A DNA stretch of 64,000 nucleotides from a phage. How positions within the stretch are numbered: position 1 is the first letter of the stretch; each line of letters begins with the position of its first letter. The DNA lies in the NCBI GenBank assembly GCA_028030915.1, contig GCA_028030915.1_4867.1. The stretch is one strand, 5' to 3'. A program made the position numbers and the translations under genes. This document shows positions 346 to 58,014 of the stretch, in pieces. The notes below the pieces were generated by a model. It did no database searches. It saw only the letters and a program-made list of their open reading frames with translations, and was not told the DNA's origin.

Positions 346-735
346 CTACGAGAATGTGTGATAACAACGTGTCAGTGTAACCTTCACGTTATCAGAATGG
401 TCTTCGTTGGTATACACCACCGGCCAGATAATGTTATCAGACGAAAGCGCCTTTGATAACCCTTCAATCAATTCCTTCATTGAGGTTCCCTTCAGCCGAT
501 GGGTCGTACGCCACCTGTGTGACGTCATACGGCTATAAACCACCATATCTGGTGTAAGGGTACTACTTTCCTCTTTAATCTCCTCTAAACGCTTCTCCTC
601 GCTTTCTACGAAGCTTAGTAAAGCATCCGGATTTCGAACAAACTCACCGAAACGATCGTCTCGGCGCAAGCCACAAAGAACCCATAGCGTGAATGGGTCT
701 CTGCACGCGTCCACTAACCCCTCTGCGATTTTCAT
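346..735 (-). CDS. hypothetical protein (129 aa)
   Basis: ORF track; co-oriented and tightly spaced with neighbours; no recognisable motif. Confidence 0.5.
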   Translation of the reverse strand: MKIAEGLVDACRDPFTLWVLCGLRRDDRFGEFVRNPDALLSFVESEEKRLEEIKEESSTLTPDMVVYSRMTSHRWRTTHRLKGTSMKELIEGLSKALSSDNIIWPVVYTNEDHSDNVKVTLTRCYHTFS

Positions 736-2924: not shown

Positions 2925-3728
2925 TTACCAGCTCCTTACACCCATGCCCATTACCCGCAGATTGGACACTTTCGGAGCCAGCTGCAGGTATTCCTGCGCG
3001 AGTTGCTGGAGAGCACCACGACGGGACTCAGTGGCAACAGCGCTGGTCGTTGTCGGATTGTACAGAATGTCTTCCAACACTTGACGACTGATAGGGCGGT
3101 CGACGTAAGTGCGAGTAGATTCCTGTGCCACTTTACTACCGCGTTGAATCGCAGAGTATTTGTTACAGATTTGCAGGCCATCTTCAATAACCCAGTCAAA
3201 GGTGACCAGTTTATCGATGCGGCGTACGATAGTCGTACCCAGACGACCTTCACGAACGATAGCACGCAGCGAGAAACACACGTTCTGATGTGGGTTCTCT
3301 AGTGCTTCCGCCAGAAGCGGACCACGTTCACGGTTAGGTTTAATCCAACCCCAAATTTCCATCACCGGCAGACCGTTACACATCTGGTCGGTCGGCTTCA
3401 CTTCTACTTCGCGAATGTGCATACACACGTTACGCGTTTCGATCCATTCGTTACGTTCGATCCACTGGGCTTCGCTCATGCCTTGTTCGTATTGCGGATG
3501 GTCTTCTTCACCGAAGAGATTCCCCGCCAAAACTTTACGCATGAAAACGTTAGAGCGCTCGAAGACATGTTTTGACTCGTTATAGGCGTAGTAAATATTC
3601 TCAGAGTTGAAAATATTCAGTGCACCTAACAGGACGTAGTAATATCCGTCCGCATCTTTCTTTAGCGTTGCCCCTTTATTGACCCCAGCGAGTGCCACGC
3701 AGTTATAACGTAGTGACAAGTTTTCCAT
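2925..3728 (-). CDS. hypothetical protein (267 aa)
   Basis: ORF track; long ORF, tight spacing. Confidence 0.6.
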   Translation of the reverse strand: MENLSLRYNCVALAGVNKGATLKKDADGYYYVLLGALNIFNSENIYYAYNESKHVFERSNVFMRKVLAGNLFGEEDHPQYEQGMSEAQWIERNEWIETRNVCMHIREVEVKPTDQMCNGLPVMEIWGWIKPNRERGPLLAEALENPHQNVCFSLRAIVREGRLGTTIVRRIDKLVTFDWVIEDGLQICNKYSAIQRGSKVAQESTRTYVDRPISRQVLEDILYNPTTTSAVATESRRGALQQLAQEYLQLAPKVSNLRVMGMGVRSW

Positions 3729-3790
3729 TGGTTTCCCCAGTTGTTATTACCGAAGCGGGTTATTGGGGACGTACAATAACCCTACCTCAG

Positions 3791-4519
3791 TTACCTCATA
3801 TACAAATCCTCGAGTGGCTCTGCACGTACCGGATCGACCTGGAGTGCAGAACGGATACCCTGTTTCAGTTCCACATCTGCAATCTTGGCCAACCGGGAAG
3901 TTTTGTTCAATGAACCTGAACGCAGCGGAATAAACTGCACCCGATTCATCAAATCGCTGTCTTTTTTCAGGGTGTAGCGGAAATACGTCCGCGGGTCGCC
4001 AACCTTACGCTGTGTGTGGGCAGCATAACAGTCAGCGGTGATCTGGTCGTTAAAGACCGTAAAGCCGTTCCACGTCTTAGTGTCAGACAATAGCTCAGCG
4101 TCATCTACTGCGGTGTACCAGAAAGGCCGGTTTCCGAAGTCGTAGATGTACGAAGCGATGTTGTAGACTGGCGAGGATAGCACTTGCAGCATTCGGTTGG
4201 GGAACACCACCGTGCCGGGGTCAAAACGGAACTCGTAATACGGCACACCCTGAACGTCAATTTCCTCAAACGCCGACGGGGTAATTTCAATGAACGTCGT
4301 GACGTTCGATACCCCGTAGGTTTTGCGGTCAGTGGAGATAGCGAAAATACCGACGATTTCTACTTGCGAAGAAATTACCGCCAGCTCTTTAGCCACGAAG
4401 CCAACAGGGATGTAAATGTAACATCCCCCTTTGGTGATGGTGGCCGTGCCTTGGTCCACTAAATCTGCATGAATTTTCGTCGCGTCACGACGTGCTGTTT
4501 CAATGGCGCTCACGACCAC
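3791..4519 (-). CDS. hypothetical protein (242 aa)
   Basis: ORF track; long ORF. Confidence 0.6.
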   Translation of the reverse strand: MVVSAIETARRDATKIHADLVDQGTATITKGGCYIYIPVGFVAKELAVISSQVEIVGIFAISTDRKTYGVSNVTTFIEITPSAFEEIDVQGVPYYEFRFDPGTVVFPNRMLQVLSSPVYNIASYIYDFGNRPFWYTAVDDAELLSDTKTWNGFTVFNDQITADCYAAHTQRKVGDPRTYFRYTLKKDSDLMNRVQFIPLRSGSLNKTSRLAKIADVELKQGIRSALQVDPVRAEPLEDLYMR

Positions 4520-19378: not shown

Positions 19379-21601
19379 GTGGAAGCAAGACAACTAAAAG
19401 ATTCAGGATGGGTAACCGGCCTGTTTGGCGGTACAACCGCACAACGCGATGAGCGTTTCCTGGGTTTGCGTCGTTACTCTAACGCGATGCTCTCGTTTGA
19501 AGATACCACGATGGGTGGTTCGCAAGCGTTAAATGCGCCGCCGCAGTTTACGATGTTTGCTGATCCGAGTTCAACAGGTGCTTTTGCACAACCTGATGCA
19601 GGTCGTGGCTCGTACTCAAAGTACGTTAAAGGTCAAGACCAACGTGGTTCCTATCGTTTAGGGACTTTCTATTACGAAGCTATTAACCAAAACAGTTTTT
19701 ATCTTCATTGTCGTTTCGGTAAACCTCGATATATCGGGGTCGCTGCATTCTTCGCGAATATGTACGATTCCAACCTAGCGTATCTGGCACGCACAGGTGA
19801 CTACCCAGGTATGTTACGTGCGATGGGGACGTATGTTGCCGCCGCAGCAATATGGGCCGCAGTAGGCACGGTTGCCTTTGCGGTTATTCTGATTACGCCA
19901 CGTATGTTGAAGATGGTGCTGAATAAGCAGACTTCTCGCTACTACTACGTGAAACCGACAATGCACTTGTATCTGCGCGCTGTGCAGAATATGGTCAACA
20001 CCCAGTTAGTTTATCGCCGATTGGTACCAACGGGTGTGTTAGGGACTTTCCAGCTTGCTAACGCTGTAGATGGGTCTGAGAAAGGCGGTACTGCTAATAA
20101 GTACAACGGCGACCGCAAAGAGTGGTACTCCATGCTGCCAGAAATCTGGACAGCTGATGGTGAGTTCGATATCTATCGAATGATTAACCGCTACCAAACA
20201 TTAGCCAACTACCAGGCGAAAACCATCGATAAAATTCGTAAAGAGTCGAGTAACGAAGAGGACATGGCTCGACGTTTGCGAAACTTCTATCTGGAAGCGA
20301 CGTACTCAACAACCCATTTGGAGAAAGCTGCGCAGTACGAGGTTTCTTTACGTAACCTTGAATACGTAGCCAAAGCCGGTAAAGGGTACGATGCCGGTTT
20401 TGAAAACGTCGATAACAAAGAAGACGAACTGGTAGCAGGGATGAACGGAAGCATTCAGGATGCTCAGTCACAAGGAGGTAAAGCTGAAAACTTCGAAAAC
20501 GAAGGTGACGCGCAACGTAAAGAGCTTGCCGAGCGTATGGCACAGGTTGAAAAGAACCAGGCTCAGGTTGCTAAAAGTCAGACCGAAGCAAACTCAATGG
20601 ATGAGAATAATCTCGACATTGGGAAGATTGAAAACTGGATGGACCAAGGCCAGAAAGAATCTGTCGGTAGCGTCTTCAAAGACTATATCGATATTTTAGA
20701 AGGCGCTATGGATGGGTTAACTTCGAACATCGCTTCGGAGATACGCAATGGTTCGCAGTGGATTACTTGGCGTGTTGATGGACGTGATACCGTAGGGCGT
20801 TCGTTCTCCAACACCACCAAAGAACCTGAAATCTCTGGCACGGTTAACTCCGCCACACAGAAAGCACGTTCTTTGGAAGTAAACCTCTCTGGTGGTAAGA
20901 CTGGTTTCGACGCAGTCGATGGTCTCATTACTGGGTTGAAGTCCGCCTTTACAGGCGCACTCGATTTCTTGCATTTATCAGGGATTATGTCGCTGTACAA
21001 CTCGTCAGTGATTGACTTCCCGGAAGTGTGGGACTCCTCAGACACCTCAGGTGACGATATCTCGCTAAGCATTCCCCTTCGCTGTTGGTCGGGTAACGAC
21101 TTAGATGTGTTCCAGGATCTGATTGTCCCTTTGTCGTTCTGGTTAGCGGCAGTTTGCCCGTTAGCAACCGGTAAACAATCGTTTACGCACCCGTTCTATC
21201 TGGAGTGTTATTCTCGTGGTCGTTATTCCATGCGTAATGCCATGGTAACTAACTTGAGTCTCCAGTTTGGTACAGGTGGGTTAGGGTGGCGTGCAGACGG
21301 CCTGCCGTTGTCGTGTGATATTCAGGTAACCATTCGCGACCTGTCACGCGTTATGTACATGCCGATTGTAACTGATATTGGTGTGTTTGATGATGATAAC
21401 AAGTTCAGTGAATTTATGTCTGTGTTGGGTGCTGCCACGCTTTACGAGCGTACCAACGGTATCGCGCAGGCTAAAATCAACGCGTCTATCTGGGCGCAGA
21501 ACTGGGCAAGTGCCTGGTCACAGGGCAGCATCGTCAACGCCGCGTTAGATATCATACCGGCACGACAAATCGCGAACATTTTCCTACCACAAGCGCGATA
21601 G
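19379..21601 (+). CDS. hypothetical protein, probable virion protein (about 740 aa)
   Basis: ORF track 19340-21601; preferred start is GTG 19379 preceded by agagagg SD, because the 19340 start lies inside a hairpin; immediately downstream of giant gene. Confidence 0.65.
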   Translation: MEARQLKDSGWVTGLFGGTTAQRDERFLGLRRYSNAMLSFEDTTMGGSQALNAPPQFTMFADPSSTGAFAQPDAGRGSYSKYVKGQDQRGSYRLGTFYYEAINQNSFYLHCRFGKPRYIGVAAFFANMYDSNLAYLARTGDYPGMLRAMGTYVAAAAIWAAVGTVAFAVILITPRMLKMVLNKQTSRYYYVKPTMHLYLRAVQNMVNTQLVYRRLVPTGVLGTFQLANAVDGSEKGGTANKYNGDRKEWYSMLPEIWTADGEFDIYRMINRYQTLANYQAKTIDKIRKESSNEEDMARRLRNFYLEATYSTTHLEKAAQYEVSLRNLEYVAKAGKGYDAGFENVDNKEDELVAGMNGSIQDAQSQGGKAENFENEGDAQRKELAERMAQVEKNQAQVAKSQTEANSMDENNLDIGKIENWMDQGQKESVGSVFKDYIDILEGAMDGLTSNIASEIRNGSQWITWRVDGRDTVGRSFSNTTKEPEISGTVNSATQKARSLEVNLSGGKTGFDAVDGLITGLKSAFTGALDFLHLSGIMSLYNSSVIDFPEVWDSSDTSGDDISLSIPLRCWSGNDLDVFQDLIVPLSFWLAAVCPLATGKQSFTHPFYLECYSRGRYSMRNAMVTNLSLQFGTGGLGWRADGLPLSCDIQVTIRDLSRVMYMPIVTDIGVFDDDNKFSEFMSVLGAATLYERTNGIAQAKINASIWAQNWASAWSQGSIVNAALDIIPARQIANIFLPQAR

Positions 21602-21623
21602 TACACCACAGAGGTAGCGCATT

Positions 21624-22175
21624 ATGAGTTTATTTGGAAAGACCGCAAAAGAGTTGGTTTACGATCTTATCGTGTCCCAGAATCCCGGACTGACTGGTAA
21701 GGGCGTGACCATCGATAAATTGTCGTTCGGTAACCCGTCGCACATCACCGCAGCCGATCCTGACCCAGAACAGTACACCAGACTGAACACCAGTCTCGAT
21801 GTTTCTGGTATCGTTGAGAAAGGTACGTTTGGTAAGATGGGTCTTACTTACCGTCGACTGGACGTAGCCCACCTGTTTGAAAACGTGGTGCTGTCTGTGG
21901 ACGGTAGTAGCGCCAATACAGCCGCCGACCTCGTTCCGTTGTTACAGGCCAAGTACAATTGGTTGATTGATGCGAGCGAGATTTATGCGACGGAGTCAAT
22001 GACGTCTTCCACGAAACACAATTTGCGTTTCAATGGAAAGTCACTGGCGTGGACGGGTACGGTTGAAGTTTATTTGACCGAAGTTCCGAGCGATGGTGTC
22101 GATATCAGTAAACTGATCACCGTTACTGAGTTGAACGGTCTGGTTTATGACATCTCCGACATGACTCAAGCGTAA
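21624..22175 (+). CDS. hypothetical protein (183 aa)
   Basis: ORF track; SD gaggt upstream; followed by bidirectional terminator. Confidence 0.6.
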   Translation: MSLFGKTAKELVYDLIVSQNPGLTGKGVTIDKLSFGNPSHITAADPDPEQYTRLNTSLDVSGIVEKGTFGKMGLTYRRLDVAHLFENVVLSVDGSSANTAADLVPLLQAKYNWLIDASEIYATESMTSSTKHNLRFNGKSLAWTGTVEVYLTEVPSDGVDISKLITVTELNGLVYDISDMTQA

Positions 22176-32290: not shown

Positions 32291-33565
32291 TTACAAGGCG
32301 AAATAGCTCTGCACCAGCGTACTGGCAGACTGATATTGGACACTACCACCGGCGATAACGTACGGACGTTTCTCGGTGGTCAGGAGTGCTTGAATCGCAT
32401 TACTGTTGGCGTACGTGTAAAGCTTAAGCTCAACCATTCCAGGATTCGTTTTAGAGATATCCCAGTTTGGATTAAGCGCATTAAACAACGTCAACAGTCG
32501 TTGGCCGTAGGTGCTGTAACCCACCCCCGGCTCAACGTTAAGGTTCATCAGAAGATTCTGAATAACAGTATCTGCAATCTCAGCACCTTGACCTGGCTGT
32601 AGTTTAGGCAAGTAATACTCAACGGAATTGAGATTGCCAGCAGCCGCAGCCTGTATCATCAGTTCGCCGTACAACGCTTGTTGTGCAATAGGATCGGTGA
32701 TAGCCTGAATCATCGGATCGATGCGATTCGGCAGACCGTATTGATTGAGCTTTGTGGACATACCGTATATCAACGCAGACGAGGTGTTGATATCCAGCGA
32801 GGAGAAATTCCCACTCCCGCCCGTAAAGCTATCAATGATCCCGTCGATAGACAAGAAGTCGTCCAGGTCCTTAAAGCTATCAAACGTGTGCGTAACATCG
32901 TCAATCAGTGCGGTGACTTGCCACTTGGCGCTATTGGCCATATCGACGTAGTTACCGATTTCACGCTGTACCTCACCAGGCAGTTTGGCAAGCTGTCCCG
33001 CGATGTTCATCGTGGACTCCAGGCGAGCTTTCACTGACGCATAATCTGTCCCGACCGCGCTTAAAGCGCTATCACGAAGATCAGTCAGTGTATCCCATCC
33101 CTTACTTAACAGACTACCTGCGCCGCCCGGTGAGAGATAGCTCAGTGCAGTTTTCCCTTCCTGGTTTACCTTCTGAAAGGGTTCGGACACATCGCGCTTC
33201 TGTGGATCGATAACTGGCAGCGCTTCTTTCGTGTTGGAAGCAAAAGTAGGCACACGTTGAGGCGGCGATACTCCGGAAGCCGCTGAACCTGCTGCCTTTT
33301 TACCACCTACCGTGACTTGGTCGCCACCCCCGAACACGTTACCAAATTTTTCACTTATCGTGTTGCCAATGTTGGAGATCTTGTCGAAAGTTTCCCCTGC
33401 TTTGGCGGTTACGTTATTGTACAAATTTTGAGCACTTTCAATACCGCGCTCGGCATTACCAATCGTTGACTGGACACGGTTTTGAACATCGTTAACTTTG
33501 TTCTCTATTGCGCCCGTTGTGCTGCTTATCTGGTTGGTAATCCCATCAAGGTTGTTCAGTTTCAT
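32291..33565 (-). CDS. hypothetical protein (424 aa), possible virion/fibre-like protein
   Basis: ORF track; N-terminal Asn/Gln/Ser-rich helical repeats and Gly-rich linker; function not resolved. Confidence 0.6.
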   Translation of the reverse strand: MKLNNLDGITNQISSTTGAIENKVNDVQNRVQSTIGNAERGIESAQNLYNNVTAKAGETFDKISNIGNTISEKFGNVFGGGDQVTVGGKKAAGSAASGVSPPQRVPTFASNTKEALPVIDPQKRDVSEPFQKVNQEGKTALSYLSPGGAGSLLSKGWDTLTDLRDSALSAVGTDYASVKARLESTMNIAGQLAKLPGEVQREIGNYVDMANSAKWQVTALIDDVTHTFDSFKDLDDFLSIDGIIDSFTGGSGNFSSLDINTSSALIYGMSTKLNQYGLPNRIDPMIQAITDPIAQQALYGELMIQAAAAGNLNSVEYYLPKLQPGQGAEIADTVIQNLLMNLNVEPGVGYSTYGQRLLTLFNALNPNWDISKTNPGMVELKLYTYANSNAIQALLTTEKRPYVIAGGSVQYQSASTLVQSYFAL

Positions 33566-34424
33566 TGGAACTCCAGAATCTATACGTCGCTAACGGAACG
33601 TCGTCGCTGACCTCATATTCTCTACCACTACGATGACGAACTTTGAATGTGATTTCGAACTCACGTACGTCCAGCGCTTGTAAGATTATTAGAAACCAAC
33701 GCCAGGTGATTGCCTCGGTGTGACGCATCGCCTGTTTCATGTTGTTTCGTCTGTCCCCACGTTTGGATGATGTGCCTGGGCACAACTTAGGGTTGTTGAC
33801 GTAGTTCGTCGTCCACCGTTCCAGTTTATCACCATCGATTTTATACCCACGAATAACTTTGTAGATTAAACGCAGGAGAATGTGCTTCATCACATGTTCG
33901 ATAGTGTGGTCGATGTTCGCGACATACTCGTTAACGTCGTAAGATGCAGGATGCTCGAAACGCTCTTTACGTTTCTTCCTGTTCTCATTACGTAAGTTCT
34001 TAATGAAGTCCTCACGCACAAACGTACTGTCGAATACAAAACACTTCGTGTCAAAGCTTCCCCGCTTAGTCAGCAGGGTGACTGTTAGCGTTTGCATCTC
34101 CAGGATAACTAATCCCTCGATGAAACGTTTCCACGTAAAATCGACTGTCAGGTTACGTACCGAACCACCCGTAAGTGAGGTGTTCAGCCGGTTAACGCGG
34201 TCGGTCATCGTGGTCAGTTTGCTGTCGCGAAACTGTTTCAGATACTCCGGGTCGTTGACATGTTGACGGATAAGGTTTTTCCATATCCCGTCGCTAATAC
34301 CCATCAACTTAACCAGATTCCAATAAGCTTTCCTTAACGGGTAGCTGGAATCTGACGCCGGTGGCGTACCGTGCCAAATTTGCTCGCGTGTGCTATTCAG
34401 CGGCGGCTTTTTCTCATCATCCAT
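33546..34424 (-). CDS. hypothetical protein (292 aa)
   Basis: ORF track. Confidence 0.6.
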   Translation of the reverse strand: MDDEKKPPLNSTREQIWHGTPPASDSSYPLRKAYWNLVKLMGISDGIWKNLIRQHVNDPEYLKQFRDSKLTTMTDRVNRLNTSLTGGSVRNLTVDFTWKRFIEGLVILEMQTLTVTLLTKRGSFDTKCFVFDSTFVREDFIKNLRNENRKKRKERFEHPASYDVNEYVANIDHTIEHVMKHILLRLIYKVIRGYKIDGDKLERWTTNYVNNPKLCPGTSSKRGDRRNNMKQAMRHTEAITWRWFLIILQALDVREFEITFKVRHRSGREYEVSDDVPLATYRFWSSNETEQP

Positions 34425-50277: not shown

Positions 50278-50871
50278 TTACGCTTCGGCCTCAAAGAACG
50301 GCTGGTTCGGTACCACTGCATATTCGAGCACGAAAAGATGTTCTGGGGCATCTTCTGCTCGCCACAGTTTGTGACACGTTGCCAGTTTTTCCAGGATGGT
50401 CAACCAGCTGAGCTGGCAGAAAGCACGATCGCCGAAGAACAGTTTCTGCAGTGCAATCGACACATCCATATACGCCTGTTTGAAGTCGAGTTCTTTATCG
50501 TAACCCGCCGACTGTCGCCACGTCAGCACGAAGCCTGCTTCGGTTTCGTTAATTGCTGGACGTAAACCACAAATCCACATCAGCGCCAGATTAACGTTCC
50601 AGTCGAATTCGATACCTTCGTCTTCGTCATCACCAAACGCCGCGTTTAACGCATCGTAGAAACCGTGGTTCTCTGCGAACCATTCGCCGTACTCAACGTA
50701 TACCGGTGCTTCGACAGCTTCCCCATCGACTTCACCGATAGGACGCTCTACATAGTTCGGGTTGGTTTGAACGTGTTCCGCACCCGCGCGAATTAATTCG
50801 TAGACATCTTTGGCGGTGATTTGTGCGGCTGTTTTAAGACCTGGATACCAGGGGCGTGTTACGAGTGTCAA
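50278..50871 (-). CDS. hypothetical protein (197 aa)
   Basis: ORF track. Confidence 0.55.
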   Translation of the reverse strand: MTLVTRPWYPGLKTAAQITAKDVYELIRAGAEHVQTNPNYVERPIGEVDGEAVEAPVYVEYGEWFAENHGFYDALNAAFGDDEDEGIEFDWNVNLALMWICGLRPAINETEAGFVLTWRQSAGYDKELDFKQAYMDVSIALQKLFFGDRAFCQLSWLTILEKLATCHKLWRAEDAPEHLFVLEYAVVPNQPFFEAEA

Positions 50872-51590
50872 AGCAATGCTCCTTTCATGATAGTGTTATT
50901 TGCCAGTAGTGTACCGGCCGCAGGTGATATTTTGGTGTACAGCGTATCCCAGATTTTCTGAAGTTCAGCGACGCGTTGGTCGTGGTCTTCCTTCGCAAAA
51001 GCAAGCTGACGTGTTTCAGCTTTCGGTGGTGTCATTTTCGCACCGTAGAATGCTGCGTCTTTTCGGTAGCTGGCCATCCAGCGTTTCCCGACCGGTGATT
51101 TCTTTTTAATCATCGCAACAGCAGCACCCTCACCGAAGCGGTAGCCTAAAGCGATTTCGGCTGTGCTCGGCTTGCGTTTGAGTTGTTTTGTCAGATGATC
51201 CTCGATGTGTTTCATGTAAACGGCAGCAAGCTGTACAGCATACTTCGGTTTATTAAGGTCCGCATTCTTTGGGATGTTAAGTTGTTTCCCATACAGACGT
51301 ATCATGGAGCGTTTAGTGCCTGTCGTCATTTGGACAACACTACTAGCACTGCTCGATTTATTCTTACCCACGTTTTTATTAAAACGGGATTCACGATAAA
51401 TGGTGGTCGCGAGCATCCCGGCATGTACGCCTTGTTTTCGAGATGCGGTGACGATGAGAGGTTTAATCTCATTGAACTGGTCCTGGATAAGGACGAATTC
51501 TTTTTGGTGTTTGTTACTGGTGGTCTGGTAAGAAGCGTTGCTGTTGAACGTAGTCATTGCTACCAGAAGAAACAAAATGGTGCGAAACAT
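50868..51590 (-). CDS. secreted lytic transglycosylase-like protein (SLT domain with N-terminal signal peptide)
   Basis: 240 aa; N-terminal MFRTILFLLVAMTTFNSNA is signal-peptide-like; SLT-like motifs TTIYRESRFN...SSASSVVQM and ALGYRFGEGAA. Confidence 0.6.
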   Translation of the reverse strand: MFRTILFLLVAMTTFNSNASYQTTSNKHQKEFVLIQDQFNEIKPLIVTASRKQGVHAGMLATTIYRESRFNKNVGKNKSSSASSVVQMTTGTKRSMIRLYGKQLNIPKNADLNKPKYAVQLAAVYMKHIEDHLTKQLKRKPSTAEIALGYRFGEGAAVAMIKKKSPVGKRWMASYRKDAAFYGAKMTPPKAETRQLAFAKEDHDQRVAELQKIWDTLYTKISPAAGTLLANNTIMKGALL

Positions 51591-51677: not shown

Positions 51678-51697
51678 TGATGATAATATCTATTTGA
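51678..51697 (-). promoter_or_regulatory. conserved intergenic motif A, copy 4
   Basis: tgatgataatatctatttga; overlaps stop of macrodomain gene, about 95 nt upstream of start 51590. Confidence 0.3.
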
Positions 51698-52190
51698 AAC
51701 TATTTGGGATGATTTTCTCTGCTTCCCTCAGCAGGGTGTCCGGTAAATAGAATCGATAAGTCTGCTCCGTGTGCTGTAGTCGTTTCTGTAAGTGTATAAA
51801 GATTTCCAATCGCTCATGGTAACGTAACCAACCGTTAGCCATCCCTAGGGGCGGTATCGCAATCCCTCCTTCTAAGTCTTCCCCTAGTCGCGCCAGCGCA
51901 TCAATGCCGGACGTGACATAGTAAATCTGCGATTTATAGCGAAAATGGGTTTTAGTAGGAAGGAGTATTACCCCTTCCTCAGGATAACAATAGACCTCAC
52001 CGATAACGATTTGCTCTTTACGGCATTTCTGGCGATAGTCATTATAAAGCGATGGGAAGCGTTCTCGGCACGCCAAAGCAATACCCCTTCCCATCGCACC
52101 AACGCAATTAACTGTAACGACCTTGAAGCGCTCAGGCGCGTTAAACAGGTCGTGGGAGATAACGGCCTCGTCGATCAGTTCTAGTGACAT
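51690..52190 (-). CDS. macrodomain protein (DarG/TARG1-like ADP-ribose-binding or hydrolase fold)
   Basis: 166 aa; VVTVNCVGAMGRGIALACRERFP...IGEV...IAIPPLGMANG matches the NC.G.MG.GIAL...FP glycine-rich ADP-ribose-binding loop of DarG/TARG1-type macrodomains (recalled from memory). Confidence 0.65.
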   Translation of the reverse strand: MSLELIDEAVISHDLFNAPERFKVVTVNCVGAMGRGIALACRERFPSLYNDYRQKCRKEQIVIGEVYCYPEEGVILLPTKTHFRYKSQIYYVTSGIDALARLGEDLEGGIAIPPLGMANGWLRYHERLEIFIHLQKRLQHTEQTYRFYLPDTLLREAEKIIPNSFK

Positions 52191-52823: not shown

Positions 52824-53087
52824 TTAGGGTAAAGTTGCCTCCCAGTCGTGGTGGTGAGGCTCAGGCAGCGTACCAAGCGCTGCTTTAATACACGTACTCA
52901 GCGGAGTATCATCGAACGCAACACGCCCGATAGTGCCCACGTTGATGTGTTTAGGATTTACGGGTAAGAACTCCTTCACCCGCTCGTACTCAGCCCAACA
53001 GACATCGGTGTTTAAAGCTGAAAACCCAGGACGGTGAAACATAAATAGCACTCCTCGCGTAAAAATACCCCACTCATAGTGAGGCAT
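52824..53087 (-). CDS. hypothetical protein (87 aa)
   Basis: ORF track. Confidence 0.45.
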   Translation of the reverse strand: MPHYEWGIFTRGVLFMFHRPGFSALNTDVCWAEYERVKEFLPVNPKHINVGTIGRVAFDDTPLSTCIKAALGTLPEPHHHDWEATLP

Positions 53088-53112: not shown

Positions 53113-53628
53113 CTATGCTACCGCAGTCCTTAAAGGTTCATCTGCTTCCGCAGGAACCTGCTTCTTAAATTCAAGCCATTGTCCGTCTGTAGAGACGGTC
53201 TTGTCAAAACCGCGAGCGGTAAAGAACGCAATACCAGCTTCCTGGCAAGCGTATATTCCCCCATGCGCACTGGTGAACTGTTCATTCACATCAAGCGCAT
53301 CAAAAATCTGCGTCATCGTTTTACGACGGCGTGCCATTTCAGACACGAACATCGTACGAATCTTCAGAACCCCAGCGATTACGCGATACAAACAGTAACC
53401 AACAGGGGTACCCCCTTCCAGAGCAACACAAGCACGGTTCCCCGCCAACAGTTTCTCCAGAGTGAGGTTCGGAATCTCACCTTTTTCGATATGGAGTATG
53501 GTACGTTGGTGGTTCAGAAATTTATAATGCAGCCCCAACAGCTGTTTATTTTGTGCTTCCGTTAAATCTGAGGATGAGGAAAGAATGACAATTTCGGCCA
53601 TGAGCTGAATTCCTAAGTGAGCTTTCAC
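53113..53628 (-). CDS. hypothetical protein, weakly GNAT-acetyltransferase-like (171 aa)
   Basis: ORF track; VGYCLYRV...MFVSE..RR...T.IFDAL....AC.EAG.AFF is only loosely compatible with a GNAT fold. Confidence 0.45.
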   Translation of the reverse strand: MKAHLGIQLMAEIVILSSSSDLTEAQNKQLLGLHYKFLNHQRTILHIEKGEIPNLTLEKLLAGNRACVALEGGTPVGYCLYRVIAGVLKIRTMFVSEMARRRKTMTQIFDALDVNEQFTSAHGGIYACQEAGIAFFTARGFDKTVSTDGQWLEFKKQVPAEADEPLRTAVA

Positions 53629-54138: not shown

Positions 54139-54270
54139 ACTAAAATAACCATGATGCCAGAAATGCTCCGATTGCACAGATGATAATCGTAATGCCAAGG
54201 TCTGTCCAGGTGGCACCATCATACGCACCTGTTGCAATCATGGCTGCGTTGACACTATTCACGACTGTCA
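54139..54270 (-). CDS. tiny hydrophobic peptide (43 aa)
   Basis: Own translation MTVVNSVNAAMIATGAYDGATWTDLGITIIICAIGAFLASWLF; its ATG overlaps the end of the upstream small ORF; not in ORF track (<60 aa). Confidence 0.3.
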
Positions 54271-54458
54271 TAAGCCGGGTCCCTTAAACGCGGGGGCTTG
54301 CTCCACAGATTACCGAAGTAAACCCCTTCTAAGAACACCAAAACAACTAAGCCCCAAAAGGCAGGCGTAGCGCGAGACATGAAAATACCGAGTAGCACCA
54401 CAGTGTGCATTACCACAACTGCCCAAAACTTTAAACGACCAGGTTTACGTCTTGCCAT
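54255..54458 (-). CDS. small membrane protein (about 67 aa from internal ATG)
   Basis: ORF track 54255-54503; preferred start MARRKPGRLKFWAVVVMHTVVLLGIFM... overlaps the stop of the upstream 34-aa peptide; two hydrophobic segments. Confidence 0.4.
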   Translation of the reverse strand: MARRKPGRLKFWAVVVMHTVVLLGIFMSRATPAFWGLVVLVFLEGVYFGNLWSKPPRLRDPAYDSRE

Positions 54459-54549
54459 GGAATGCCCATCCTTTCGTGCGGATAATCCAACCCCAGGCAC
54501 CACGAATCAACCACAGTGCAATACCGGTTAATACGATACCTTCAATCAT
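54445..54549 (-). CDS. tiny hydrophobic peptide (34 aa)
   Basis: Own translation MIEGIVLTGIALWLIRGAWGWIIRTKGWAFHGKT; start overlaps stop of upstream ORF (ATGA); not in ORF track. Confidence 0.3.
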   Translation of the reverse strand: MIEGIVLTGIALWLIRGAWGWIIRTKGWAFHGKT

Positions 54550-54737
54550 GTCCGTTCTCCTATATCTCGCCACTCACAACGCGTGTCAAAAAGGCGTTCT
54601 TTAAGAGCAGAGGCTAAATAGACAACTGCAGCGATAACCACCACGGCTGCACAAAAGGAGAGGTACAGTACCATCACAACAAACTGAAGGAACTGAAAAC
54701 CCCACCAAGCCCATAAGCGCCAACCTTTATGATGCAT
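54546..54737 (-). CDS. small membrane protein (63 aa)
   Basis: ORF track; hydrophobic core FVVMVLYLSFCAAVVVIAAVVYLA; overlaps the 3' end of the Rad50-like gene. Confidence 0.4.
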   Translation of the reverse strand: MHHKGWRLWAWWGFQFLQFVVMVLYLSFCAAVVVIAAVVYLASALKERLFDTRCEWRDIGERT

Positions 54738-57237
54738 ATTTGATTATTACCCCTTCGTTATACACCGGTGGAAGCGTTACACCTTCTGGTTCTACGACAC
54801 AGTAGGTGGCTTCGTTAAGTTTAGAATGAACTTCCGCTTCATGCGAAACGACCAGCAATTGAGAAAACTCTCCCGACAACGCCAACGATTTAATGAAGTT
54901 AACTAATCGGTTTTTGTGTTCTTCATCCATGCCTTCAGATGGTTCATCCAATAACAAAGGATAATTTTGTAAACCAAGTGCTTTATACGCCGTTAAACGA
55001 AACATCATGTTGAAAATGATACGCTGTGCTTTTGAACCTTTCTTCACGTCAGGTACCAGTTCTTCATGGTCTTTTAATCGTACCGGGAATGTGTAATCCA
55101 AATCCCCGTCGGTTAAATCGCACGGAATAACCTGCATCGGATATGCCCACACCATTTCGATATACCGATTCATTAAATCCATGATGCGTGTAATCGCAGC
55201 ATAAAAGTAACGACGCAATAATCCTTTTTCGGGGGAGACGGCATTGATAATCAATCTGGCATGGTGATGCTCTTTGAGCAGTTCAGCTTGTTCCTTTTCC
55301 AGTTCCGCTAAACGTGCAATAGCCCCTTCCATTTGACGAAACCGTTCACGAGCTGAAGTATACGCATCGAGCTTCGCTTCGCGTCGGTTTAACAACTCGC
55401 GAACCACGACGTTGTTAACGGAGATGTTCATTTCCGATACCAGATGTTCGTAGCCCTTTTGGAAACGTTCGATTGCTTCTTTGGTTTGTTGCAGTTGGAT
55501 GGTTTCGCGTTCCAGCTCATTGGCTTGTCTGCGGTATTCTATCAGTCGACGGTTAGCCCCGTCTAGTTGTGAACGGATATGTTCAATTTTCTGACTCAGC
55601 GCACCATCAACATTACCTACTGCGGCAACAGCCTCTTGCCATTCCCGTTCCGCTGTTGCAAGCTTCGCTGATTGACGCAGATACATCATGGCCGAATCTA
55701 ACTCTTCGGTAAAGGCACGTGCAATGGCACCATAACGATCCCGCGACGTGGTGAAGATATCCAACTCTTGCAGTTTACGGAAAAACAAACCGACAACGGG
55801 ATGGTTGGAATACGACATGACAATTTCGCGAATCGTACGTAAGCTACGGACGTCCTCTTCAATCTCTTTGCGGTCACGCAAAAGACTATCCATTTCGTCT
55901 TTCAGCTGTTTTTTCCAACCTTCATTATCGTTGATGGCCTTTTCAGTTTCAGGTAACGACTTACGAATCCCAGGACGGAAACGGTGGTTACACTGTGGAC
56001 AATCAACTTCTGCAGTTTCTAAGAAGTGTTGACGGTCGTGGTATAAACCGTGTAGCACATTCTCACAACGTTGCAACTTTTCAGATAGACCCGCAGAGGT
56101 TAAATCCATACCCTGTAAACGCTTCTCTAACGCTCCCAGGCGCTCTGTTGTCTTTAACTGGTCCAGATGCATGGACAACGGTAAATTCCAGTTACAGGCG
56201 TCGTTTAACGCGTTCTGAATGCTATCCACGTCGATGCGGGTACCTTCAAACAGAGCCGGGAACATCCAGTTCTGTTGGAACGTTGCCAGTTCCTGTTTTA
56301 AGCTGTCGATTGTTTGTTTTAGACCGGTATGGTTGCGCATCAGATATGTTTGACGCGACTCCTCATCCAGTAGCTGTGACAACTCTTTATTGTACATGTT
56401 GCATTCAGTTTCAGCAGAGGCAGCTTGCTCACGCCAGGCAACCACACGACTTTGAAACTCGTTAATCAGTTCGTCAGAAGGCAGAACGCCATAACGTTCC
56501 ATAATGAGTTTTACAGCCGGTTGCAACGAAGCAATGCGTTTCCGGATACTGTCAACCGAAACAGCGTTATCTAAACCGGGCCTTGCTTCAATTGTGCGGT
56601 TTAATTCTTGAAGCTCAGCATCGAGTTCTTTCAAACGAACTTCTAAACGTGCACGATCTTCTTCATCGTCAACGACGCGCATTTTTGCTTCGCCGATTTT
56701 TCGTCCGGTGTGTTCGATGGCCCCGCTTAAACTGGAAGCGAGTTTACGCAAACGTCGATAGCAGCCAACAACGTATGTCAGATCAGATTCTGACATTAAC
56801 GTAAACCATTTGCGACGAACTTCGGTAGTGGCGTCAGTTAATAAGGTCTCGCCATTAATTAACTCTTTGATTTCTTTGGTGATTCCGGTTAACTGTTCCA
56901 CCATGGAGTTGTAAACTTTGGCGTTTACCGAGTCCACAATGGGGACGCCTTTGGTGATATTGAAAATACTACAAGACAAAGAAGACCCACGTCGCAGGAC
57001 TTCAAATTTAAGACGGTCGTCCCCGACTAACGCGTAGTTAGTGTAAGAACCGCCTTCGCGGAATTCAGATTTTGCTGGAGCTAAGGGGAGAAAAACAGAC
57101 AGGAGGCTTGTTTTACCGCAACCATTGCCACCGAGGATGATGGTAACGGTTGACTTAAGGGTGAAATCAAACGTTTCGATTTCGTGTAACCCCATGCCGG
57201 TAAATCCTTTCAAAATGATACGTTCGACCTTGAGCAT
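54727..57237 (-). CDS. Rad50/SbcC-like ATPase (836 aa)
   Basis: Walker A ILGGNGCGKTSLL near N-terminus; long central coiled-coil-like region with CPQC zinc-hook-like motif; Walker B/D-loop LLLDEPSEGMDEE and H-loop VVSHE near C-terminus. Confidence 0.8.
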   Translation of the reverse strand: MLKVERIILKGFTGMGLHEIETFDFTLKSTVTIILGGNGCGKTSLLSVFLPLAPAKSEFREGGSYTNYALVGDDRLKFEVLRRGSSLSCSIFNITKGVPIVDSVNAKVYNSMVEQLTGITKEIKELINGETLLTDATTEVRRKWFTLMSESDLTYVVGCYRRLRKLASSLSGAIEHTGRKIGEAKMRVVDDEEDRARLEVRLKELDAELQELNRTIEARPGLDNAVSVDSIRKRIASLQPAVKLIMERYGVLPSDELINEFQSRVVAWREQAASAETECNMYNKELSQLLDEESRQTYLMRNHTGLKQTIDSLKQELATFQQNWMFPALFEGTRIDVDSIQNALNDACNWNLPLSMHLDQLKTTERLGALEKRLQGMDLTSAGLSEKLQRCENVLHGLYHDRQHFLETAEVDCPQCNHRFRPGIRKSLPETEKAINDNEGWKKQLKDEMDSLLRDRKEIEEDVRSLRTIREIVMSYSNHPVVGLFFRKLQELDIFTTSRDRYGAIARAFTEELDSAMMYLRQSAKLATAEREWQEAVAAVGNVDGALSQKIEHIRSQLDGANRRLIEYRRQANELERETIQLQQTKEAIERFQKGYEHLVSEMNISVNNVVVRELLNRREAKLDAYTSARERFRQMEGAIARLAELEKEQAELLKEHHHARLIINAVSPEKGLLRRYFYAAITRIMDLMNRYIEMVWAYPMQVIPCDLTDGDLDYTFPVRLKDHEELVPDVKKGSKAQRIIFNMMFRLTAYKALGLQNYPLLLDEPSEGMDEEHKNRLVNFIKSLALSGEFSQLLVVSHEAEVHSKLNEATYCVVEPEGVTLPPVYNEGVIIKYAS

Positions 57238-57290: not shown

Positions 57291-57322
57291 AAAAAAGAAG
57301 AAATGGAACCCCGAAGGGTTCC
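57291..57322 (-). terminator. intrinsic terminator (UUCG loop)
   Basis: aaaaaagaagaaat ggaaccc cgaa gggttcc. Confidence 0.55.
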
Positions 57323-57333
57323 AGAGAGGAGAG

Positions 57334-57978: not shown

Positions 57979-58007
57979 AAAAAAAGAAGGTAGCCCGTAG
58001 GCTACCT
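57979..58007 (-). terminator. intrinsic terminator
   Basis: aaaaaaagaa ggtagcc cgta ggctacc. Confidence 0.55.
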
Positions 58008-58014
58008 CTCGTAT

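Follow-up and report, generated by a model that had tools for sequence, protein, structure and literature searches.

The ATPase gene and its neighbourhood

The stretch of phage DNA analysed here (64 kb in total, hereafter the window) carries an open reading frame, exact from ATG to stop, for an ABC ATPase resembling SbcC/Rad50 (Table 1). Over 6 kb, the DNA of this locus was 99.3% identical to that of SEGD1 and 98.8% identical to that of SPN3US, both of which are Salmonella jumbo phages, and the ATPase shared 99.8% protein identity with the SEGD1 copy. The protein corresponds to gp186 (ACQ60_gp080) of SPN3US and is labelled 'putative SMC domain-containing protein' in SEGD1. Compared to SPN3US, a few substitutions and an indel of ~513 bp, located ~1.9 kb from the 3' end of the ATPase gene, were found, and otherwise nothing substantial.

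The gene downstream of the ATPase encodes a small single-pass membrane protein with a hydrophobic stretch at residues ~14-45, and 11 nt of this gene overlap the 3' end of SbcC. This protein, gp187 in SPN3US, has been compared with T4 gp47.1 by Thomas et al. 2016 (PMC5105663). It is a possible accessory factor, and any functional link to SbcC is speculative. On the other side, the 96 nt that separate the upstream gene from the start codon of SbcC contain a GC-rich hairpin followed by a T-run, an indication that transcription of SbcC is not simply shared with the upstream gene. The same pattern scan returned 11 terminator-like sites in the region versus 5.4 ± 2.1 expected. A promoter scan performed no better than on shuffled sequence, and no Rfam family matched anywhere in the window. 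A preliminary description of this DNA had noted that neither neighbour resembled Mre11, and indeed no Pfam match or nuclease assignment was obtained for either flanking gene.

Table 1. Coordinates of the ATPase gene, its motifs, the flanking features and the partner gene. Positions refer to the window unless SEGD1 is named.
Feature	Position	Strand	Basis
SbcC/Rad50-like ABC ATPase gene, 836 aa	54727..57237	-	exact ATG-to-stop ORF
Walker A / P-loop GGNGCGKT, residues 36-43	57109..57132	-	regex + translation
CPQC zinc-hook motif at coiled-coil apex, residues 413-416	55990..56001	-	regex + translation
Variant ABC signature motif GSKAQ, residues 734-738	55024..55038	-	phmmer alignment
Walker B + D-loop LLLDEPSEGMD, residues 761-771 (LLLDE 761-765, SEGMD 767-771)	54925..54957	-	regex + translation
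H-loop / switch SHE, residues 798-800	54838..54846	-	regex + translation
Small single-pass membrane protein (SPN3US gp187), 63 aa	54546..54737	-	ORF; phrog_16515
Terminator-like GC-rich hairpin, then T-run	57304..57323	-	pattern scan only
Upstream flanking gene, 208 aa	57334..57960		phrog_9964
SbcD/Mre11-family partner SEGD1_029 (= SPN3US gp27), 382 aa	SEGD1 20822..21970		phrog_100

Architecture, family and signature motif of the ATPase

The Walker A motif, the central CPQC, the Walker B motif with its D-loop, and the H-loop, all previously read from the translation, were located by regular expression, and their conservation was counted over 151 aligned, diverse family members. In Walker A, residues G36, N38, G39, G41, and K42 were invariant in alignment A1, with a family pattern of G-x-N-G-[SC]-G-K-[ST] over the 151 aligned members. 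CPQC is the sole CxxC in the ATPase and lies almost exactly in the middle of the protein; C413, P414, and C416 were found in 150, 138, and 151 of the 151 members, respectively. The two acidic residues of Walker B, D764 and E765, were present in every member and the D-loop D771 in 147/151, and phmmer aligned the whole LLLDEPSEGMD segment with LILDEPTPYLD of P. furiosus Rad50. In the H-loop, S798 (144/151) and H799 (150/151) aligned with VSHD of the same protein. A Q-loop glutamine was sought by conservation and none was obvious, correspondence with T4 being uncertain, which counts against the SbcC/Rad50 reading.

These motifs form a split ABC head, with Walker A in the N-terminal lobe and Walker B, the D-loop, and the H-loop in the C-terminal lobe. 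The AF2 model of the ATPase (mean pLDDT 82.9) displayed this split head, with a long coiled coil that ends in a hairpin at its apex. Its domain limits were an N-lobe (1-137), an ascending coiled coil (138-407), an apex (408-427), a descending coiled coil (428-667), and a C-lobe (668-836). The two coiled-coil helices were near-continuous, with pLDDT mostly 70-90, and the apex was a short beta-hairpin of ~20 residues bearing CPQC, with no globular hinge. Architecture and conservation of the catalytic motifs are thus directly supported.

We then compared the protein with known families. The phrog_77 'SbcC-like' profile matched residues 1-835 (E=2e-95), PDB sequence matches were headed by Rad50 on both lobes, and the best Foldseek match to the model was C. 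thermophilum Rad50 (7zr1, E=2.5e-20). At E<=1e-30, 1523 representatives matched, and the best-scoring 150 of these were almost all ~815-840 aa long. Curated cellular models matched weakly and scored well below threshold, which counts against the SbcC/Rad50 reading, with 29.8 bits versus a cut-off of 40 for Pfam SMC_N and 57.9 versus 1087 for NCBIfam Rad50 (NF002572), and no SbcC model was among the best 25 NCBIfam matches listed. Since the cellular models fell short yet phrog_77 matched so strongly, the ATPase belongs to a very divergent viral branch. Generic SMC-like families scored similarly (ASRP 4e-19, LmuB 3.7e-19), and so sequence profiles alone cannot separate Rad50 from other coiled-coil ABC ATPases. 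Pfam and NCBIfam being non-discriminating, we based the assignment on PHROGs together with the hook, fold, and partner.

It could be argued that this is an SMC-like ATPase with a role in organising or condensing DNA, or a structural ATPase, and that it works with no nuclease, for example on phage DNA inside the phage nucleus, while the distant SbcD-like gene acts independently. Public records do name it an 'SMC domain-containing protein', the best NCBIfam match is an archaea-specific SMC-related protein, Foldseek also returned Smc5/6, condensin, and MukB (E 1e-16 to 1e-12), and the SbcC and SbcD genes are unlinked. However, the apical hairpin with its invariant CPxC in place of a globular hinge is the hallmark of Rad50/SbcC, Rad50 ranked first by both PDB sequence and fold, an SbcD-like gene co-occurs almost perfectly in ~290 genomes, and neither Pfam nor PHROGs gave a kleisin or MukEF-like assignment among the neighbours of the gene. 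An SMC-like role of this kind is very unlikely. The Rad50/SbcC-like class first proposed for the protein was upheld by phrog_77, by the PDB and Foldseek matches, and by the near-invariant CPxC hook; structure prediction, suggested at the time as a check, put Rad50 first with a model of pLDDT 83, and the protein did not classify as another ABC/SMC family.

The signature motif required separate attention. The canonical LSGG was reported to be missing, and the equivalent position reads GSKAQ. In the phmmer alignment, K736-A737-Q738 were aligned to the G-G-E of LSGGE in P. furiosus Rad50, which is why we take GSKAQ as the LSGG-equivalent pentapeptide. It lies 26 residues before Walker B (~25 is usual) and, in the model, directly before helix 736-753. 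Both glycines of LSGG are replaced, so the strict consensus LSGG[QE] does not hold, a point against the Rad50 reading. Over the 151 diverse members, the family signature was G-S-x-[G/A/S]-Q, with S735 in 151/151, Q738 in 138/151, and position 737 occupied by G (70), A (61), or S (20). The motif of phiKZ gp165 reads GSDSQ. Since hhalign between the family and T4 gp46 covered the N-lobe only (64.5% probability), which counts against the SbcC/Rad50 reading, the gp46 signature was compared by eye and reads FSEGE. The term 'degenerate' previously applied to the motif therefore holds as to departure from the consensus but not as to loss of conservation, and the alignment indicates that the odd signature is a conserved family trait with no decay.

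These counts also bear on whether the ATPase might be catalytically impaired by a decayed signature and act just as a scaffold or as an arm that binds DNA. The replacement of both glycines and the failure to recognise a conserved Q-loop glutamine would agree with such impairment. Against it stand the universal Ser735, the small residue always found at position 737, the frequent Gln738, and the essentially invariant Walker A Lys, Walker B Asp-Glu, D-loop Asp, and H-loop His. T4 gp46, an active Rad50 ATPase, deviates from the consensus as well. Impairment is thus highly improbable, and the conserved G-S-x-[G/A/S]-Q offers a small, concrete handle for mutagenesis of the presumed SbcC/Rad50 subunit.

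A separately encoded SbcD/Mre11 partner

No Mre11/SbcD partner is encoded in the window. A tblastn search of the whole 64 kb with the family SbcD gave nothing better than E=1.4, and the ordered metallophosphoesterase motif pattern, which does match true SbcD, was found in 0 of 202 open frames. It had been suggested that the nuclease partner lay elsewhere in the genome or had been replaced. The first proposal proved correct, in that the 99%-identical relative SEGD1 carries an SbcD gene far from the ATPase; replacement is unsupported. An SbcD-family gene was detected at >=80% coverage in 36/37 related Seoulvirus records, SEGD1 included. In SPLA3, the SbcD gene is split by a 91-bp duplication.

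The SEGD1 partner, SEGD1_029, was matched by phrog_100 'SbcD-like' (E=1e-52). Its phosphoesterase motifs (I NDIHL, II GDLFD, III GTPSHD, IV MHG, and V GHDH) aligned with those of T. maritima Mre11; motifs I, II, IV, and V were conserved, and in motif III Ser replaces Asn. Among 30 family sequences, the putative metal ligands G57, H101, D102, H180, H212, and H214 were invariant, and D22, H24, and D58 were at least 90% conserved. Pfam assigned Metallophos alone to the intact protein (E=0.038) and had no match to the truncated SPLA3 copy, and a PDB search with the single SbcD sequence gave nothing relevant; a profile of the 30 sequences was thus needed to reach Mre11/SbcD. With that profile, the PDB matches were Mre11/SbcD chains only (best 2.5e-12), and hhalign of the family with T4 gp47 gave 81% probability. 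The predicted structure (pLDDT 91.0, pTM 0.81) comprised Mre11 nuclease and capping domains and a pair of C-terminal helices (356-363 and 371-381) resembling the Rad50-binding domain. The top 27 Foldseek matches to this model were all Mre11/SbcD, with 3qg5_C first at 4e-11, and other phosphoesterases followed at >=1e-4.

In SEGD1, the SbcC and SbcD genes are separated by 146 kb along the linear record and by 90 kb in the other direction, and in all 14 genomes checked (14/14) they were 78-107 kb apart at nearest. An SbcC-like gene occurred in 298 phage records and an SbcD-like gene in 290, the two showing the same spread across genera. The existence of the partner, its co-occurrence with the ATPase, and the unlinked arrangement of the two genes are therefore direct observations, and no Mre11-like gene adjoins the ATPase. 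In the locus of Proteus phage 7, a 'nuclease SbcCD subunit D' is listed, which we rejected as an adjacent partner because it is the mislabelled SbcC gene itself. Public labels for this family can mislead in general: some records read 'SMC domain protein', and two (Proteus phage 7 and MET_P1_082_240) read 'SbcCD subunit D'.

The ATPase of an anti-phage or inter-phage conflict system, of the Lamassu LmuB or another defence type, is an extremely improbable identity, for although PADLOC LmuB models matched (E=3.7e-19 and 1.4e-13), with weaker matches to JetC, DndD, and AriA and with Lamassu LmuB structures in the Foldseek list, the PADLOC matches were partial, largely in the coiled coil and in some cases the P-loop, neither an LmuA-type nor any other effector gene lies next to it, an Mre11-type partner is conserved alongside, and the gene is a conserved, essential one of a lytic phage family and not an accessory island gene.

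Proposed function and comparison with known systems

Taken together, the gene very probably encodes the SbcC/Rad50 subunit of an SbcCD complex, of the Mre11-Rad50 type that processes DNA ends, in an SPN3US-like, phiKZ-related jumbo phage. The observation is real and ordinary: the identity of the protein, its essentiality, its partner, and the separation of the two genes were already published in 2016 (PMC5105663). In that study, gp186 and gp27 of SPN3US were assigned as the SbcC and SbcD subunits, gp186 was found essential by amber mutant, and SPN3US, phiKZ, and related phages were said to have the two genes "drastically separated" (PMC5105663, Thomas et al., J Virol 2016). The same points recur in later comparative and functional-genomics work. 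Transposon insertions are not tolerated in orf165, the phiKZ homologue (PMC12676376), and among jumbo phages the conservation of SbcC and SbcD has been described as practically universal (PMC7824862). Knock-down of phiKZ 165 by ASO gave a mild ('+') phenotype only, which counts against the SbcC/Rad50 reading.

By homology with E. coli SbcCD, T4 gp46/gp47, and the archaeal and eukaryotic Mre11-Rad50, we infer that gp186 and gp27 form a physical complex with ATPase and nuclease activity and a role in replication or recombination. ATP would be bound at the Walker A motif of each of two ATPase heads, and the heads would engage via the signature motif G-S-K-A-Q of the other subunit, in which Ser735 lies at a helix N-terminus. 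The antiparallel coiled coils of ~250 residues would be joined through the zinc hook, CPQC. Clamping on DNA ends, driven by ATP, could then position the SbcD/Mre11 nuclease (SPN3US gp27), a dimer encoded separately, which would resect or open ends and hairpins, and the products may be used in recombination-dependent replication or in repairing the 240-kb genome. That the conserved signature, the lack of an apparent Q-loop Gln, the longer coiled coil, and the downstream membrane proteins (gp187 and the next ORF) amount to a mechanistically distinct Mre11-Rad50 machine is unlikely; if true, such a machine might suit nucleus-forming phages through an altered ATP-engagement cycle or tethering to membrane or shell.

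The closest known proteins are SPN3US gp186, encoded by the same gene, and phiKZ gp165, which is 22% identical end-to-end (E=1e-59), has the same length and GSxxQ signature, and carries its CPxC hook (CPSC) in the same place. The phiKZ-related (Chimalliviridae) jumbo phages likewise have SbcC unlinked from SbcD. In phiKZ-like genomes scattered genes are the norm, and hence a Rad50 that looks like an 'orphan' within 64 kb of jumbo-phage sequence is no sign that the nuclease has been lost.

T4 gp46 shares the split ABC head, the coiled coil with a CxxC hook (CPTC), and a non-canonical signature, and gp46, like gp186, is essential to its phage and has a partner of the Mre11 type. The two systems differ in size and in gene order, and the sequences of gp46 and the ATPase are only just recognisable as similar. 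T4 gp46 has 560 aa versus 836 aa here, with a coiled coil ~300 residues shorter, and T4 genes 46 and 47 are near neighbours with two small ORFs between them, whereas the SEGD1 pair is 90-146 kb apart. With cellular SbcCD and Mre11-Rad50, the architecture is shared and so are the ATPase motifs, except for a signature without both glycines. In motif III, the partner has G-T-P-S-H-D where cellular Mre11 has G-N-H-D, and the phage proteins score far below the curated cut-offs of the cellular families. Finally, the cellular genes form an sbcDC operon, whereas those of the phage are unlinked (PMC5105663).

Motifs and class of the ATPase

All elements listed in the preliminary description (Walker A, a central CPQC, Walker B/D-loop and H-loop) were located in the 836-aa ORF, and the Rad50/SbcC-like class it had proposed was borne out. 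Residues 1-835 matched phrog_77 ('SbcC-like subunit of palindrome specific endonuclease') at E=2e-95, and Rad50 gave the top PDB sequence matches for the N- and C-lobe alike. Curated cellular models matched weakly: Pfam SMC_N reached 29.8 bits where its cut-off is 40, the NCBIfam Rad50 models (1e-10 to 6e-16) fell far under their cut-offs, and the generic coiled-coil ABC families ASRP and LmuB scored in the same range as the Rad50 models. Structure prediction, which had been suggested as a check, yielded an AlphaFold2 model (19 homologues, mean pLDDT 82.9) for which Foldseek ranked C. thermophilum Rad50 first in the PDB (E=2.5e-20), with Smc5/6, condensin, MukB, LmuB and JetC all below Rad50. 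Because the hook is present and a hinge absent, the protein as modelled groups with Rad50/SbcC and not with SMC proteins proper.

Features of the ATPase, its surroundings and the SbcD-like partner (window coordinates unless stated; counts from the alignment of 151 family sequences)
Feature	Position	Strand	Basis or detail
SbcC-like ATPase ORF, 836 aa	54727..57237	-	translation, ATG to stop
N-lobe	residues 1-137		AlphaFold2 model
Walker A GGNGCGKT	residues 36-43		regex + translation
Helical arms	residues 138-407 + 428-667		AlphaFold2 model; apex a short hairpin bearing CPQC
CPQC, mid-protein	residues 413-416		regex + translation; sole CxxC; C413 150, P414 138, C416 151
C-lobe	residues 668-836		AlphaFold2 model
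Signature position G-S-K-A-Q	residues 734-738		phmmer alignment to P. furiosus Rad50; 734 Gly 123; S735 151; 737 Gly 70, Ala 61, Ser 20; Q738 138 (Met in 12)
Walker B + D-loop LLLDEPSEGMD	residues 761-771		regex + translation; D764-E765 151; D771 147
H-loop SHE	residues 798-800		regex + translation; H799 150
Upstream neighbour, 208 aa	57334..57960		PHROG of unknown function
Downstream neighbour gp187, 63 aa, single-pass membrane protein	54546..54737	-	PHROG of unknown function
SLT-type transglycosylase	50868-51590	-	near SbcC 3' side
Macro-domain protein	51690-52190	-	near SbcC 3' side
GNAT acetyltransferase	53113-53628	-	near SbcC 3' side
SEGD1_029, intact SbcD-like gene, 382 aa	SEGD1 20822..21970		motifs I NDIHL, II GDLFD, III GTPSHD (Ser replacing Asn), IV MHG, V GHDH

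Over the 6 kb around the gene, identity was 99.3% with Enterobacteria phage SEGD1 and 98.8% with Salmonella phage SPN3US; each is a 240-kb jumbo phage in the phiKZ-related genus Seoulvirus. The SPN3US gene, ACQ60_gp080, is labelled 'putative SMC domain-containing protein'. Thomas et al. 2016 (PMC5105663) described its product gp186 (95.7 kDa, phiKZ ORF165) as the SbcC subunit, essential per an amber mutant, and assigned the SbcD subunit to gp27, with the two genes far apart in SPN3US, phiKZ and relatives. They also remarked on the longer inter-lobe region and on gp187, a 63-aa transmembrane protein encoded directly downstream, and mentioned a signature motif, passing over its sequence. SbcC and SbcD are practically universal in jumbo phages (Iyer et al. 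2021, PMC7824862). In phiKZ, orf165 tolerated no transposon insertions (PMC12676376) and, when screened with antisense oligomers, showed a mild phenotype (PMC12571901). The gp186/gp27 finding has thus been published before and is nothing unusual in this phage family; the present analysis adds only one modest point, the variant signature as defined for the family as a whole.

A variant signature across the family

No LSGG was found in the 836-aa ATPase, as had been noted by eye. GSKAQ was assigned to the signature position since phmmer against the PDB placed K736-A737-Q738 opposite G-G-E of the P. furiosus Rad50 LSGGE. G734, S735, A737 and Q738 were invariant in 19 relatives with identity down to 29%. 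An exhaustive profile search with the ATPase family recovered 2386 cluster representatives at E<=1e-3, of which 1523 reached E<=1e-30. Among those listed, the top-scoring 150 were nearly all 815-840 aa, and conservation was counted in an alignment of 151 of these sequences. The phiKZ protein gp165 carries the signature GSDSQ and the hook CPSC, and T4 gp46 has FSEGE where the target has GSKAQ. From these counts and motifs, the signature appears to be a variant conserved across the family, G-S-x-[G/A/S]-Q, off consensus and with no sign of decay, which retains the Ser, the Gln and a small residue at the second-Gly position. The earlier term 'degenerate' fits the departure from LSGG, though not the strong conservation of the motif.

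Within residues ~118-145 (window ~56803-56886), the family alignment contained no strongly conserved Q-loop Gln. The position apparently matching the T4 Q-loop Gln, an uncertain correspondence, is occupied mostly by His in the family and by Lys in the target; G129, T134 and R141 are conserved near the expected Q-loop.

The SbcD-like partner

Neither neighbour of the ATPase gene had a Pfam match, in keeping with the earlier remark that both lack Mre11 motifs. A search of the window for Mre11/SbcD found none: tblastn gave nothing better than E=1.4, and an ordered SbcD motif pattern that recognises true SbcD occurred in 0/202 open frames. The suggestion that the partner may lie elsewhere in the genome is supported by the intact SEGD1_029, the counterpart of gp27. 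As a single sequence it gave E=0.038 with Pfam Metallophos and no relevant match in the PDB. The partner matched phrog_100 ('SbcD-like') at E=1e-52, and in an alignment of 30 sequences G57, H101, D102, H180, H212 and H214 were invariant, with D22, H24 and D58 conserved at >=90%. The family profile retrieved only Mre11/SbcD chains from the PDB (T. maritima Mre11 2.5e-12, P. furiosus Mre11 ~2e-5, E. coli SbcD 5e-5), and hhalign to T4 gp47 gave 81% probability over 215 columns. The best 27 structural matches of the SEGD1_029 model (pLDDT 91.0, pTM 0.81) were all Mre11/SbcD, and other phosphoesterases trailed by >3 orders of magnitude in E-value. The family-level evidence for Mre11/SbcD identity is decisive.

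In the PHROG-annotated relative Salmonella phage SPLA3 (OR413581), the annotated 'SbcD-like subunit' (32863..33921) is a copy shortened by a frame-shifting 91-bp tandem duplication (~32783-32964), so that the gene is split into an upstream 70-aa fragment with motif I and a 352-aa protein without it. The duplication has no counterpart in the other related records listed (1310 bp vs 1401 bp); it either arose in assembly or truly disrupts a presumed-essential gene. Those records mostly say 'putative nuclease SbcCD D subunit'. The 'nuclease SbcCD subunit D' at the locus in Proteus phage 7 (MT679221, 169816-172284) was rejected as partner, being the ATPase gene misnamed; its start codon is also called 14 codons short. 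At least one public record (MT679221; OQ383623) labels an SbcC-type gene in this way, and automated searches for the partner could be misled by the error.

By tblastn, 298 phage records contained the SbcC-like gene and 290 the SbcD-like gene, with nearly matching counts per genus (Pseudomonas 81/81, Erwinia 62/62, Serratia 21/21, Aeromonas 19/19, Klebsiella 16/16, Ralstonia 13/13, Vibrio 22/23). The SbcD shortfall sits in Salmonella records (33 vs 24) and probably stems from fragmented SPFM copies of both genes. Several SPFM jumbo-phage assemblies (LR535901, LR535903-LR535908, LR535911, LR535917) gave matches in 23-24 pieces or very-low-identity copies of both genes, and odd 'divergent' protein-database entries (P0038-P0045, P0081-P0083); errors of sequencing or assembly seem a better explanation for these than real variation. 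In the 14 genomes with both coordinates listed, 78-107 kb separated the two genes along the shorter arc of the circle; for SEGD1, they are 146 kb from each other on the linear record and 90 kb in the opposite direction.

Surroundings and comparison with T4

The transglycosylase, macro-domain (at or just under the Pfam threshold, strong PHROG match) and GNAT genes are none of them tied to DNA-end processing. About 1.9 kb from the SbcC 3' end, the window (52826-52863) lacks ~513 bp that SPN3US has (3314-3864) and that correspond to hypothetical gene ACQ60_gp073; Seoulvirus isolates are thus polymorphic for this indel. GC-rich hairpins, each with a T-run after it, stand in the short intergenic gaps upstream of the SbcC gene (57304-57323, minus strand) and of the gene preceding it (57987-58008, minus strand); terminator-like sites in the region numbered 11 vs 5.4 +/- 2.1 in shuffled sequence, ~2x. 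The gp187 gene shares 11 nt with the stop region of the SbcC gene, and an 82-aa ORF with hydrophobic stretches (54255-54503, minus strand; phrog_18173) encodes a second small hydrophobic protein downstream.

The architecture, the conserved motifs, the partner with its co-occurrence, and the essentiality are shown by evidence, whereas the formation of a complex, the enzymatic activities and the biological role are proposed by homology. Two gp186 heads would bind ATP and engage via the signature Ser of the opposite head, and the zinc hook would join the coiled coils. A gp27 dimer may dock on the coiled-coil base via its C-terminal helices and process DNA ends or hairpins, likely so that the large genome can be repaired or undergo recombination-dependent replication, as with T4 gp46/47. 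The placement of gp187 recalls T4 gp47.1 beside genes 46/47, a likeness of position alone. The T4 genes, previously called adjacent, are near each other with only two small ORFs between them, whereas the SbcC-like and SbcD-like genes of the 14 genomes lie far apart.
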